A stretch of 64,000 nt of DNA, taken from assembly GCF_018350175.1 (NCBI RefSeq), contig NC_058368.1, forward strand, positions 6,882,001 to 6,946,000, in the 5' to 3' direction. Below, in pieces: positions 32,713-38,300 of the stretch (the first letter of the stretch is position 1; the number at the start of each line of letters is the position of its first letter). The notes beneath the pieces are model-generated. The model ran no database searches. It was given only the letters and a program-made list of their open reading frames with translations, and had not been told where the DNA came from. The stretch is from Felis catus (Eukaryota). The translations under genes and the position numbers were made by a program.

Positions 32713-34788
32713 CTTTAAAGATTACAGATTACTTTGAGATATTTAGAATCATTTTGGGAGTGCATCAGAATTTATTCAAATATGAAGACAGACACATCCA
32801 ATTCTAACACTAGTTTTTGGAACAATCTTATTTGACCAGGCACTGATATTTCCCTATTCACCAGTAAGACGCACAAATACATGTATTAAATGCACTTGAG
32901 TGAAAGCCCTAGAAAGAGCTTAAGAGTCTAACATTCTTCGGGTCAGATGGCATGGCTTAGTGTTTGACTTGGCAAACCTCTTCCTCATTCTCCTAATCTA
33001 ATTAAAGCGTATATATTTATTGTTATGGTAACCTGAATATTGTTTGTGTCCCTCAACTAGAATATATACACTATGAAAAGCAGGAACCGCCCTGATCACG
33101 ACTGTTCCCCCCAGCACTCAGCCAGTCTTGGCACTTAGCAGGTGCTAAGCATGTATCTGATATACTTGAGTGAACAAATGGTCAGTAAAAAGGAAACACG
33201 TCGCTCCTGAAGCAATAGACTCTGACAGTGAACTATGACCAGACAATCTGTATAGCTCAGCAATCTGGCAAGATTATCACTTTCAAAGACTTAATTATCA
33301 CATTCCTTCTGAAACAAGATAATTGGCACACCTAAAAATAATGAATCCAAAAGATCCTGGGGAATCGTTTTAATCTAGTCCCTTTAACATCACTGCTTTC
33401 CTAAACTGTATATTTATGAGAAAGAACAAACATCCATTTGGGGAAATGGATTCTTCAACGGTTCACTCTTCAATGATTTAATACTGTGCGATTTTAATCC
33501 CACCTGACTTCAGCCATTTTTTGTGCTGTTTCCCAGCGCGCAGTATAGATTCTGCTTCTAAAGCATCTTTCCAATCTGATTCGCGGCTCCTTATAGAAAG
33601 GCATATACAATGTACTACTCTTAAGCCGAAGATTGCTTGGGGAGCTCCTGTATGCGATCAGGTGCACAAAAAGGGCCCGCAAGACACAAAACAGAAGGAA
33701 AGATTTCAGGAGTCGTTAATAACACAATCACTAGGCCCACGTTGCAAAGAGTAACTTTCTTTCCGTGAGGGCTCCCAATTATGATCCCTAGATGGTGGCT
33801 CATGTGCAGCTAATGGAACGAATTTGCCCCATCGCGTGGAAAACTGTGGCCCTTCTGGCCAATCACAAAAACAAGATTCAAACGCCCCCACGTTTTGCTT
33901 TAATGAATTCGGGACTTTGCAACAGGCATTAGCACTTGTCCCTTAAAGTCTATTTCAAAGCCCCCAACGAAACCCCAACAACGAGCCTGTACAGAAATAC
34001 TTCCAGCCACACGCAGATGGGTCTGGTGTTATTAAAGTAAACAATCGACGGGAGAGCTTAAGCTGTTTTCAAGATTAACGTGGATTCGCAAAGACGAGAC
34101 TGCCACCTGGACACATGGCTGGAAAACGGAGAGCTCGTTGCTCAGCAAGAGCAGAAAATAGGAAAATTTTCAACAGCACTTATTTAAAGTTTCCACCTTC
34201 ACACACACCCCCTTCCCCTTCAGCACCGGGTGGGGGCCTCGGCCTCGCCAGAGGCGCGGGGAGGAAATCTGCACTTGACTTCCGTCCTCTCCCGGCAGGA
34301 ATGAGACCCTGCCTTCCTGCCCCGCGGACCCCCCACCCCCGCCCGGGGCCACCTTCCCCGCTCCGCGCACCGCCAGACGGAAACGGAGAGGCGTCCTTCC
34401 ACCTCCGACCGCGGCCGGGGGCCGCGCGCCCACAGCCCGGGGTGCGCCTCGCCGCTCCGCCCCGGCGCCGCGGGAAGACTTGAGCAGTTGAGCCCGGGGG
34501 CGCCGACGACCGGTGCCCGCGCCCCGCCACGTCCGGCACGGTCGCCCCCGCGCCGGCCACCCTCGCGCCGCCCCGGCTCGCCGGGCGCCTCCCCGCTTCC
34601 CGGGGGCAGCTGAGCCCCCGCGCTCCCCGCCCGCCGCCGTCCAACCGCCCCCGCCCGGGCCGCGGGCCCCCGGCCCCCGCGCTAGGCCCCGCGGGCCGCC
34701 CGGGCGAGGGGCGGGAGACAAGGGCCGCGGCCGCCCGCCCGCCCGCGGGGCTCCCGGGCCGCCCCCGCCGCCCTCCCGCCGCACCTAC

Positions 34789-34836
34789 CATGGTACAGAT
34801 GGAGGCGAATTTGGAGACTGTCATTAGGATTTCCAT
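34789..34836 (-). CDS. USP12: Ubiquitin carboxyl-terminal hydrolase 12, coding part of exon 1 (MEILMTVSKFASICTM; partial CDS, phase-0 intron follows)
   Basis: The 16-codon peptide matches the USP12 N-terminus as I recall it. It is followed immediately by a canonical ATG|GTAGGT donor and lies inside a CpG island. Confidence 0.96.
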
Positions 34837-34850
34837 CCGCCCAACGCCAT
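34824..34850 (-). promoter_or_regulatory. Overlapping upstream ORF MALGGWKS* in USP12 5' UTR
   Basis: ATG GCG TTG GGC GGA TGG AAA TCC TAA (TGA); context AAGATGG; out of frame with the main ATG 14 nt downstream. Translation is not demonstrated. Confidence 0.6.
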
Positions 34851-35070
34851 CTTCCACCCAATCACGGCGGCGGCGGGCGGGGGAGGAGAGGAGCCGGGCC
34901 GCCCGCTTGCACCGCAGCCCGCGGGCGGACCCCCAGCCGCCGAGGACCCACGCACCGAGCCTGCTCTGCCGCCGCTGCCGTCGTCGCCGCCGGCGCTCCG
35001 GCACTCCCCGCCTCGGGCCCCAGTCCCCGCCCGCCCGCCCCGGCGCAGGGCGCAGCCGCTGCCTCGGGGC
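34837..35070 (-). other. USP12: USP12 exon 1 5' UTR (TSS approximate)
   Basis: GC-rich leader with (GGC)-like runs between the start codon and the GC-box array; the exact TSS cannot be read from sequence. Confidence 0.55.
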
Positions 35071-35183
35071 CCGCGCCTGCCCGCGAAGCCTCCCGCCGTA
35101 CACCCCGCCCTGCGCGCTGGGGAGCCTGCTCCGCGGCGGCCCTAATGCCCGGCCAGTCCGACAGCTGCGCGGCCCAGCGGCGC

Positions 35184-35389
35184 GCCCCGCCCTCCCGCCG
35201 CGCGCTCCGACCGCCCCGCGCGGCCCCGCCCTCCCGCCGCGCGCTCCGACCGCCCCGCGCGGCCCCGCCCTCCCGCCGCGCGCTCCGACCGCCCCGCGCG
35301 GCCCCGCCCTCCCGCCGCGCGCTCCGACCGCCCCGCCCTCCCGCCGTGCGCTCCGACCGCCCCGCGCGGCCCCGCCCACCCCGCCGCGC
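35184..35389. repeat. 39-bp GC-rich tandem repeat in USP12 promoter (~5.3 units)
   Basis: Unit GCCCCGCCCTCCCGCCGCGCGCTCCGACCGCCCCGCGCG: three perfect copies (35184-35300), one 29-bp truncated copy, one copy with a single substitution, one partial copy. Confidence 0.95.
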
Positions 35390-38300
35390 ACGCCTCTTCG
35401 GCTCCGGAGCGCGCGAGCCGGGGAACTCCGGCGCGGCCCCACCCCGCGCACGGCCGGACCCCGCCTCCCGCCCGCGTCCCGCGCGGTCCTAGAGCCCGCG
35501 CGCCGGCGGAGCTCGGGCGGCGAGAGCGGCGCGCGGGGAGCGTCCGCCCGCCGCTGCTTGGGCGGCGGCGGCCTGAGTAAGTCCCGGAAGGGACTGACCC
35601 GCCGCCTCTGCCGAGAACGAGGGGACAGCCGGCCCCCACTGCCCAAACAGAAAACGGAGCTGATGATCTGGATAATTCTGGGTGGCGTGGGAGGAAACGT
35701 GCTTCTGTACGGTTAAAATAACCCGATAAGCATCCCTACGTCCCAGGCACTTAACAAAATGTAAGGTGGTCTGTTTCTTTGACATACGTTGGGTCAAAAC
35801 ACCGTGACTTCGCGAAAAGACAAATTAGTAAGATAAAAATGAAACTGTATATTTCGCTCCGTGAATTAAGAAATAAATAATGAGGAAAGGGAGCCAAGCC
35901 GCCTTCCCGCCTCCCCTGCTGGCCATAAATTTAGAGTATGTTTATAAATACAGTACCTAAATATATTTGTTCTGAAAGTTGAGTTCCAAAGCAGGGAAGA
36001 TCTCAACCCAGCCGTGATGATGACGTTACCATAGACAAGTCTCGCAAGTGAGAAAAATGTCGTGTGAGAGCTACTTAAGCCGTGGCAGCTAAGGGTACAG
36101 TTCCTCTTTTGTACTTTGATAAAATACTCCGCGCATCCCGTTCCTCGTGTCAGGCAGCTCAGCTTTATTTCTTCCTACTTAAGAAAGTAGTTCAAGCTAG
36201 TAGAGTGACTTTATTATGTTAGAAAGGTTGCAACATTTCCCCGATTGGTGAGCTGCCGTCATGGGGTGCTTTTTGGGGTTCCCCCATTTCAGTGTGGCCG
36301 AGGGCCTGAGTTCAGATGAAGCTCAAAAATCAGATATGCCTTATCTAATGGTTCAAAGCATTCGAAACACAGCAAACAAAATTGAGGTGCAAAACCAGAT
36401 TTCTGGTACATGAATGCTGTTTCCATAGTGATTTCCTTTATAAGCTTGCCTGGGGAGAAAAAATTGCGAATAGAATATAGCGAAGTCCCCATAGTGGCCG
36501 GCCTGGTTCTCCAGACACCTACTTCCACGGAAGCCGGGGCCCTCCCTCTTTGCCCTGATACCCAAGCCAGTGGCGAGGACCCTACTTTACGCCACCGCAC
36601 ACTCAGGTTTGCGGTGCTTGTCTGTCTCCCTGTCTCCCTGCCCAGACGCGGAAGAATCACCCACCCGAATTCTTTGTGTTCTGTTCTGCTTAGACCCCCA
36701 GGGCCTACCGCTGTCACCAGGCTCCCAGACCCCGCCTTGTCTCTGTGGATGAATGCCTGTATGTAACTCCTGTCCTCCTCAATTCCTATTCTGTTCCAGG
36801 AAACAGGTTTAACGTGCCAGAATTTGAGCCCACCAAGACGCTTCTTCGTCCATGAATCCTAAAACGTCACAGGAAGGAAGGCCACCAGCTTTACACATCA
36901 TGTTACACGAGAACTGGCCTTTTTAAAGATAGATTCCTGATAGAATTGTCAAGAGTTGTGTCTAGGTGATGTTATAGAAGTCTAAATTCATGAGGGATGT
37001 CATAGAACTTCACAATGCCTTAGCCTCAGGTCGACTGGAGAGGCACGGATATAAAAAGAGATCCTTCTATGTGCTAGGCACTGCCCTGGGGTATTTCTTA
37101 CCATATGCGATACAGTTAAGATAAGATTTGACTGAAACACCACACTATTGTACCCAGAGCTTAGAAGGAGTCGTCTGGGTTTGGAACAGTTTTTACAAAG
37201 ACCGTTGTACCTAGAGAAACATGAGTATGTGTATAACTGACTTGTTTGGGGCCTTCCTGAGTGCGGAAACTGCAAAATTTACCCAGGTAACTTCAAGGAC
37301 CAAGCAAGTAAACAGCCCAGGGCCAGCTTAATCTACTCGGTTTTAAATTTTTGAATATTTTTTTCATTTGAATAGTTTTACACAATCCTGCAAAGACCAG
37401 AACCTTGCGAGCTACTTCATATTTTCTGTTACTCATCTCGTGTCTAGTTAACCACGCGTCACCTCATACAGGCATAGCACGGAGACATCGTGGGCTTGGT
37501 TCCAGACCACCGCAAAAAAGCAAATATTGCAATAAAGCAAGTCAAATTAATTTGGGAGTCTCCCAGGACATATAAAAAGTTCCGGTTACACTCGACTACA
37601 GTCTTTTAAGTGTGCAATAGCATTGTGTCTAAAACACAATGTACCTTAACTTAAAAAATACGTTTATTACGATTGTTATATATTATATACATATATATGC
37701 ATATGGCAATTTTGTAAAAGAAAACAATAAAGTTTGCCCCATTGACGGACTCTTTCACGGACAATTTCCCTGTAGTGTCTCCCCCTCAGTAGAACCTCCT
37801 TCAAAGCTGGAGTCTATCCTCTCAAATCCTGCCCTGCTTGAACTTCTAAATCCCGTGTTGTCACGTCAACAGGCTTCACAGCATCTTCAGCAGGAGCAGA
37901 GTCCCATCTGGAGAAACCACGTTCTCTGCTCAGCGGTGAGAAGCAGTCCTCACCCCATCGCGTCCTGTCACGAGATCGCGGCAACGCCGTCCACCTTCAG
38001 GCCCCACTTCGTCTAGTCCTGGTTCTCTCGCTGTTTCCACCACATCCGCCGTGATTGCCTCCACCGACGCCCCGAGCCCCCAGAGTCATCCCCAAGGGTG
38101 GGAATCACTTCTGCCAAACGCCAGCAGAGGTGGATATTGTGCCCTCTGCCCGTGCATATTGAATGTTCTTAATAGCATCCAGAATCTAGAATGTTCTTAA
38201 TGGCATCTAGAATCCTTTCCAGAAGGTTTTATTTGCTTAGCCCAGATCTATCAGAGGGATCACTACGTATGGCAGCTATGACCTTACAAAACCTACCTAT

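Follow-up and report, generated by a model that had tools for sequence, protein, structure and literature searches.

Exon 1 of the USP12 gene in Felis catus raises the question of what an ATG lying shortly ahead of the annotated start codon is for: whether its short open reading frame (ORF) sets how much USP12 is made, whether it chooses between N-terminal forms of the enzyme, or whether the ATG is simply part of a DNA element. We addressed this question in a window of 64,000 nucleotides (NCBI RefSeq assembly GCF_018350175.1, contig NC_058368.1, positions 6,882,001 to 6,946,000 of the forward strand), reading its minus strand by script over 36000-34700 (Table 1). The exon-1 peptide matches database USP12 proteins exactly at their N-termini, and a UCH-family search of the 2.43-Gb assembly placed later USP12 exons on the same contig (C1), the first UCH-domain exon about 70 kb downstream of exon 1; these two observations identify the gene as USP12. 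Intron 1 is longer than 34 kb, and the window holds no further USP12 coding exon. In many places across window positions 1-34000 this intron is crowded with repeats, whose translations recur many times and which look like carnivore tRNA-derived SINEs.

Table 1 Features of the USP12 start region and of the paralogous USP46 start region (window coordinates unless prefixed L004 or G000)
Feature	Position	Strand	Details
Upstream ATG (uATG)	34850-34848	-	-3 A, +4 G
Overlapping uORF	34824..34850	-	ATG 34850, 8 sense codons, TAA 34826-34824; frame +1 relative to Met1
Second uORF stop	34823-34821	-	TGA, directly after the TAA
USP12 exon 1, coding part	34789..34836	-	16 codons; Met1 34836, Met5 34824, Met16 34791
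Met1	34836	-	ATG; -3 C, +4 G
Met5	34824	-	ATG; -3 C, +4 A; first A common to the uORF TAA (TAATG)
Met16	34791-34789	-	ATG; -3 A, +4 G; closes exon 1
Exon 1 donor	from 34788	-	GTAGGT, directly 3' of the Met16 codon
TISU/YY1-like 12-mer holding the uATG	34843..34854	-	10/12 against consensus SAASATGGCGGC; core AAGATGGC 8/8
ATTGG (inverted CCAAT box)	34858..34862	-	8 nt 5' of the uATG; single ATTGG in 34789-35200
CpG-island promoter and leader	34200..35700	.	GC 0.72-0.90
GGGCGG boxes	35192, 35110, 35040, 35036, 35032, 34904, 34842		
39-bp GC-box tandem repeat	35180..35389	.	5.6 copies, 86% matches, about 330 nt upstream of the uATG
USP46 leader ATG, first of the tandem uORFs	L004:4217		CCACCATGG context; 8-codon ORF ending 2 nt before the TISU-like ATG
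USP46 TISU-like motif	L004:4243-4251		AAGATGGCG; TISU match 10/12; its ATG opens a 9-codon uORF whose TAG ends 4 nt before the MTV ATG
USP46-type exon 1	L004:4280 (MTV start)		12 codons; last codon ATG (L004:4313-4315); GTGAGT donor
USP46 tandem uORFs and exon 1	L004:4217-4315 = G000:C11:163104605-163104703	+	

An initial annotation of this DNA had described an upstream ATG in strong context that opens an eight-codon ORF running across Met1 out of frame, with a terminal TAA that shares its last A with the ATG of Met5 and an in-frame TGA directly behind it. Every one of these details holds on the minus strand, where the uATG lies 14 nt upstream of Met1 and the uORF is therefore out of frame with it. 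The uATG had further been called the only ATG of the leader, and this is true over 896 nt, between 35733 and 34836. The context of Met1 is weak, and the uAUG is the best-context AUG ahead of Met16. In the single minimum-free-energy fold computed for the last 212 nt, the uAUG and Met1 are paired and Met5 and Met16 are unpaired. A short ORF overlapping the main AUG out of frame is also the arrangement of the published USP12/USPL class of uORFs, to which the present one belongs.

The USP12 uORF, which the initial annotation had presented as new, is already known and has been in print since 2017, when a highly conserved uORF overlapping the main AUG in another frame was reported for USP12 and USPL (PMC5577775, Genome Biol 2017;18:162). 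According to that report, the uORF starts in a TISU/YY1 motif, is conserved in vertebrates and is translated in human and mouse, in human USP12 more than the main ORF is. Mutating the AUG of the homologous ORF in JPX strongly raised downstream luciferase and slightly lowered transcription (PMC5577775). The general expectation that overlapping uORFs repress the main start applies here to the extent that our feature belongs to such a class, of which the published JPX ORF does repress. Our case is thus the same element in the same gene, as another species' copy of the TISU-associated uORF of USP12, USPL and JPX. Unlike the present analysis, the uORF section of that paper does not deal with the stop on Met5, N-terminal proteoforms, Met16 or a uORF in USP46, and a text search of its four supplement files gave no matches. 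What we add to the 2017 report is a start architecture common to two paralogs and, within it, what appears to be a surviving ancestral Met-Gly start. Two further sources touch on the gene in passing: a GC plot is the sole use of USP12 in Trips-Viz, and usp12a serves as an example in a zebrafish reporter paper.

The uORF start codon lies within a TISU-like motif, and both mismatches of the 12-mer fall on its final two positions. A caveat raised earlier, that the sequence around the uATG is also a YY1 DNA motif, is correct, and the composite element has been published as TISU. In the account given in PMC2518114, the core AAGATGGC is nearly invariable in the consensus, and the element is an essential YY1 transcription element confined to +5 to +30 from the transcription start site (TSS). 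In 64% of its genes the main ORF starts at this element, behind a median leader of 12 nt, against a median of 192 nt in the remainder, and TISU genes are enriched for the 'ubiquitin cycle' class (PMC2518114). The likeness of the USP12 copy to TISU consists in the core, the consensus match and the YY1-type motif. It differs in that TISU proper mostly starts the main ORF near the cap, whereas the USP12 copy starts a uORF and leaves the final two consensus positions unmatched; leaders of about 12 nt likewise compare with about 190-220 nt or more before Met1 in orthologous USP12 transcripts.

Taken from sequence alone, the feature is not beyond chance. TISU matches with at most two mismatches number 6 in the window against a shuffle mean of 5.8, which is no enrichment, and the chance of at least one such match inside the CpG island is 0.18 in shuffles. 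A shuffled 896-nt leader holds 4.1 ATGs on average, with a probability of 0.07 for one or none, and at least one ATG is present in 70% of shuffles of the last 300 nt. It is conservation and the published footprint data that lift the uORF above chance.

Conservation was followed by proxy in protein letters, through a homolog search with a later USP12 exon (L013:299-511, minus strand) that yielded 1784 matches, the best 120 of which were examined. Among these 120, 28 start with M[E/D]xLMTV and 15 carry this motif preceded by in-frame residues; a further 6 start with MTV and 2 with MGxNAS, 42 have other residues before GxNAS (alternative exons or partial sequences) and 27 are exon fragments. The letters MEIL themselves are found in 37 of the 43 homologs with the motif listed among the best 120, the other six being single variants. 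The 15 read-through ORFs span primate, other mammals, caecilian, toad, lizards, carp, loach, percomorph fish and shark, and they extend the comparison into the leader. Within this set, x-Asp-Gly stands at a fixed spacing before Met1 in 14 (one of them with a one-codon insertion that preserves the frame), and the fifteenth, a whale-shark ORF, has His-Gly instead; these are protein letters, and an Asp codon GAC would abolish the uATG. Asp-Trp, which in the Met1 frame is encoded by the ATTGG box, recurs in 7 of the 15. Upstream of a block of about 10 codons the read-through sequences are unrelated. As far as translated sequences can tell, this pattern suggests that some 30 nucleotides are conserved, at a constant distance from Met1.

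The same block might be conserved as protein, if a non-AUG codon such as the in-frame GTG at 34857 initiated an N-terminally extended USP12. Consistent with such an extension, the in-frame residues look conserved and the Met1 frame is open upstream for 293 codons, as far as a TAA at 35715 on the minus strand. Conservation over only about 10 codons that coincide with known DNA motifs, followed by complete divergence of the read-through sequences further upstream, is nevertheless not what a coding extension predicts; the GTG, moreover, has T at -3, and the published reading of this stretch is a uORF in another frame (PMC5577775). We therefore regard an extended protein as extremely improbable. 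The open frame does matter for annotation: many database USP12 models carry spurious N-terminal extensions, and the long read-through extensions of P0027, P0033 and P0058 are likely to be annotation artefacts.

Three of the homologs also bear on leader length. Two of them, P0019 and P0010, are products of splicing across several exons, since their sequence enters the next exon where the genomic DNA enters the intron; ahead of Met1 they have 74 and 72 residues, respectively, and P0082 has 64. In other animals there are therefore mRNAs whose Met1 is preceded by about 190-220 nt or more, and in those transcripts the uAUG is not cap-proximal and is reached by ordinary scanning. Long-leader transcripts argue against cap proximity there and are compatible with additional nearby TSSs.

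A second line of evidence comes from the paralog in the same genome. The UCH-family search revealed, on C11, a gene with the same exon pattern, and when the 100 kb upstream of it were scanned with the exon-1 peptide of the window, a single site was returned, inside a CpG island. This site is a USP46-type exon 1, and it bears out in the same genome the statement of the initial annotation that USP46 begins at the Met5-equivalent MTV, without MEIL. Its leader likewise contains a TISU-like motif whose ATG opens a short uORF (Table 1). In an alignment, the two genes have the motif and CTAATGAC around the MTV Met in common, and the two uORF peptides have only Met-Ala in common. The TISU-like motif is thus kept at the nucleotide level in the USP46 paralog, and on this comparison the eight-residue uORF peptide would not itself be the product that matters. 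The USP46 leader as a whole comprises two tandem short uORFs, and a TATAAA overlaps its TISU-like motif.

We consider it likely that the feature is the orthologue of the published conserved USP12 uORF and that it is one short element serving two levels. On the DNA, it would act as a YY1/TISU-type motif in a CpG-island promoter; on the RNA, the uAUG would be the first AUG met by scanning 43S complexes. Since it combines this first position with the best context, most ribosomes would be expected to start there, to read eight codons across Met1 out of frame and to terminate at the first base of Met5. Use of the weak Met1 as a start would thereby be reduced, and Met1 would be reachable only by leaky scanning. 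The anatomy, the paralog element and the conservation proxy behind this reading are our own observations, and uORF translation in human and mouse and repression by the JPX ORF come from print (PMC5577775); from these we infer repression in the present species and the fate of ribosomes after the uORF stop. A main TSS close enough to put the element at +5 to +30, or one downstream of it, would be expected to change the behaviour of the element.

A more restrictive reading would confine the element to the DNA, as a YY1 core-promoter element acting with the CCAAT box, in which the ATG is an invariant part of the motif and its translation is without consequence for USP12. That TISU is an essential YY1 element in transcription (PMC2518114), that transcript levels fell when the JPX AUG was mutated (PMC5577775), that the adjacent ATTGG is partly conserved (7/15) and that the uORF peptide differs between USP12 and USP46 are all in keeping with this. 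It is, however, hard to square with the published footprints, which show, for human USP12, more translation of the uORF than of the main ORF, and removal of the JPX AUG raised downstream translation (PMC5577775). In addition, a strong AUG (-3 A, +4 G) before a weak Met1 must intercept ribosomes whenever it is part of the mRNA, and long leaders exist. On balance a role in DNA only seems unlikely to us.

For the ribosomes that stop on Met5, the initial annotation had proposed a compact switch, in which termination at the UAA and immediate reinitiation at Met5 would give a MEIL-less, USP46-like USP12 and leaky scanning would give the MEIL form. The UAAUG overlap on which this proposal builds is real, yet it is probably not a stop-start made for that purpose. 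Once the main frame encodes Leu4-Met5-Thr6, the uORF frame has to read TNA followed by TGA: TAA or TGA results from four of the six Leu codons, and the next codon, formed within the ATG-AC of Met5-Thr6, is invariably TGA. TAATG and the second stop thus come with the protein sequence, because Leu-Met-Thr coding forces them. USP46 has the same CTAATGAC around its start, yet the TAA there is not its uORF stop, and TAATG is kept without use as one.

In influenza B M1/BM2 and in caliciviruses, UAAUG-dependent termination-reinitiation needs a long upstream ORF together with a TURBS containing UGGGA. The likeness of USP12 to these viral systems is the five-letter stop-start overlap. Its uORF has only 8 codons, and UGGGA (TGGGA) is absent from the 212 nt scanned (35000-34789), in agreement with a caveat that the initial annotation had itself entered; the viral mechanism is for these two reasons inapplicable to USP12.

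Reinitiation at Met5 by some other route has a precedent in C/EBP alpha, where some post-termination ribosomes reinitiate at an AUG only 7 nt past the uORF stop (PMC3045505). USP46 does start at the equivalent Met, and the six MTV starters among the best 120 homologs include the USP12-like P0023 and P0064. These last two, which start without MEIL, could come from species that lack Met1 or could be ORF-calling artefacts. Met5 is nevertheless poorly placed to be used, with zero spacing from the stop and always a pyrimidine at -3 and A at +4, and no USP12 N-terminal peptide was found in three N-terminomics supplements: PMC4770386 and PMC5529458 contained no USP12 matches, and the files searched of PMC10267514 contained one protein-group row shared by USP46 and USP12, with no N-terminus. 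A TIS-mapping supplement (PMC5701008) likewise gave no matches. The stop position being dictated by Leu-Met-Thr coding and the TURBS features being absent, a stop-start switch is not supported by the anatomy, and we judge it very unlikely.

The initial annotation had also linked the MEIL motif to USP12 localisation. The wider part of this statement has backing in a review which, citing a 2019 Eur J Cell Biol paper, says that shuttling of USP12 needs 'the N-terminal motif of USP12'. The letters MEIL were not found for that motif in the literature searched, and PMC11624278 contained nothing on a USP12 N-terminal motif.

The third in-frame AUG, Met16, led us to the history of the USP12 N-terminus. 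A search of cluster representatives with the same exon returned 927 matches at E ≤0.001; we examined the best 150, of which 127 were new. Thirteen of these 127 start with MG, 24-34 residues before the GNTCY motif, and 12 of the 13 have Ser at position 6 (MGANAS, the plant-like MGAAGS and MGGSSS, MGNSAS and others); the thirteenth looks like an intron-read fragment. Because MG starts recur among representatives of the family, we take Met16-Gly17 to be the family's ancestral start. N-myristoylation follows a rule that asks for a Met-Gly start and a small sixth residue, for which Ser is ideal. The listed USP12 proteins read GANAS after Met16, so that an N-myristoylation-type motif is present, as a motif only. 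An MG start is common to many plant, protist and invertebrate members of the family, which gives them an N-myristoylation-type N-terminus.

The position of this codon is the same in both paralogs: it is an ATG with A at -3 that forms the exact end of exon 1, and Gly is the first residue of the exon that follows. Three invertebrate-like representatives (P0171, P0198 and P0238) have, before the MG start, an extension that ends ...IPCTMGANAS or ...IPCTMGGNAS and resembles the vertebrate ...SICTMGANAS. Since they carry it, the N-terminal extension with Cys-Thr-Met-Gly may predate vertebrates. The favourable context of Met16 (-3 A, +4 G) need not have been selected for initiation, because the conserved Thr/Asn-Met-Gly residues dictate it.

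This layout invites comparison with C/EBP alpha and beta, in which a small out-of-frame uORF ends at or a few nucleotides before the proximal AUG and shorter isoforms arise from in-frame AUGs further downstream (PMC3045505). The same anatomy, a uORF ending at or before the proximal AUG with a stronger in-frame AUG downstream, is found in USP12 and in USP46. There are two differences: the C/EBP uORF does not overlap the proximal start, whereas that of USP12 does, and the C/EBP isoforms are proven (PMC3045505), whereas the putative USP12 forms would differ by only 4 or 15 residues. By analogy, ribosomes leaving the uORF could reinitiate 32 nt further on, at Met16, and the Met-Gly product could be N-myristoylated. 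Met1 would by then have been passed and Met5 would be hardly usable, given its zero spacing and weak context, so that the balance between long USP12 and a short, lipidated form would depend on how often the uORF is used. Such a shunt can hold together with the two-level element that we favour, and it seems more natural than reinitiation at Met5.

Several observations fit the shunt: exon 1 closes on Met16, which has A at -3 and is followed by Gly in all listed USP12 proteins; USP46 repeats the layout, with a uORF stop, 4 nt, a weak MTV ATG and then a strong ATG (AAT ATG G) that closes exon 1; and the MG start is the ancestral start of the family, as judged from the 13 MG representatives. Set against them, 32 nt leave little room for reinitiation, the MGxxxS rule applied here is permissive, and the human myristoylome supplement (PMC4200515) contains neither USP12 nor USP46. 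The literature searched contained nothing on Met16 initiation, nor on lipidation or short forms of USP12 or USP46. For the plant relatives UBP3 and UBP4, YFP fusions are described in cytosol and nucleus, in a paper that does not mention lipidation. We think the shunt rather unlikely; Met16 is a lead and not a finding.

USP12 and USP46 have a three-tier start in common, made of a strong TISU-type uAUG, a short uORF ending on the weak MTV AUG or 4 nt before it, and a strong AUG that closes exon 1. If the lead is followed to its end, the rate of uORF translation would set the ratio of long, non-lipidated to short, N-myristoylated enzyme, and with it the membrane share that acts on receptors. The use of TSSs that include or omit the uAUG could set the ratio of long to short forms instead. 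We think it improbable that the full scheme is correct. What can be said of both paralogs is that their annotated starts are weak and stand behind a strong uORF, and that the ancestral Met-Gly start survives in the best context. Should short lipidated forms exist, they would have escaped localisation work in which the constructs were tagged at the N-terminus or forced to start at Met1.

The amounts of receptors and integrins at the cell surface are under the control of USP12 and USP46. The uORF brake sits on enzymes with this function and predates the divergence of bony fish and mammals, and for these reasons we take it to be a real regulatory feature. Repression of USP12 by AKT-mTOR was considered as a possible TISU translation effect and rejected, as it has been mapped to the promoter at -2928 to -1337 and described as transcriptional (PMC8357983). 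Upstream of the uATG, the 39-bp GC-box tandem repeat is probably promoter-proximal, and its copy number may vary among individuals or species.
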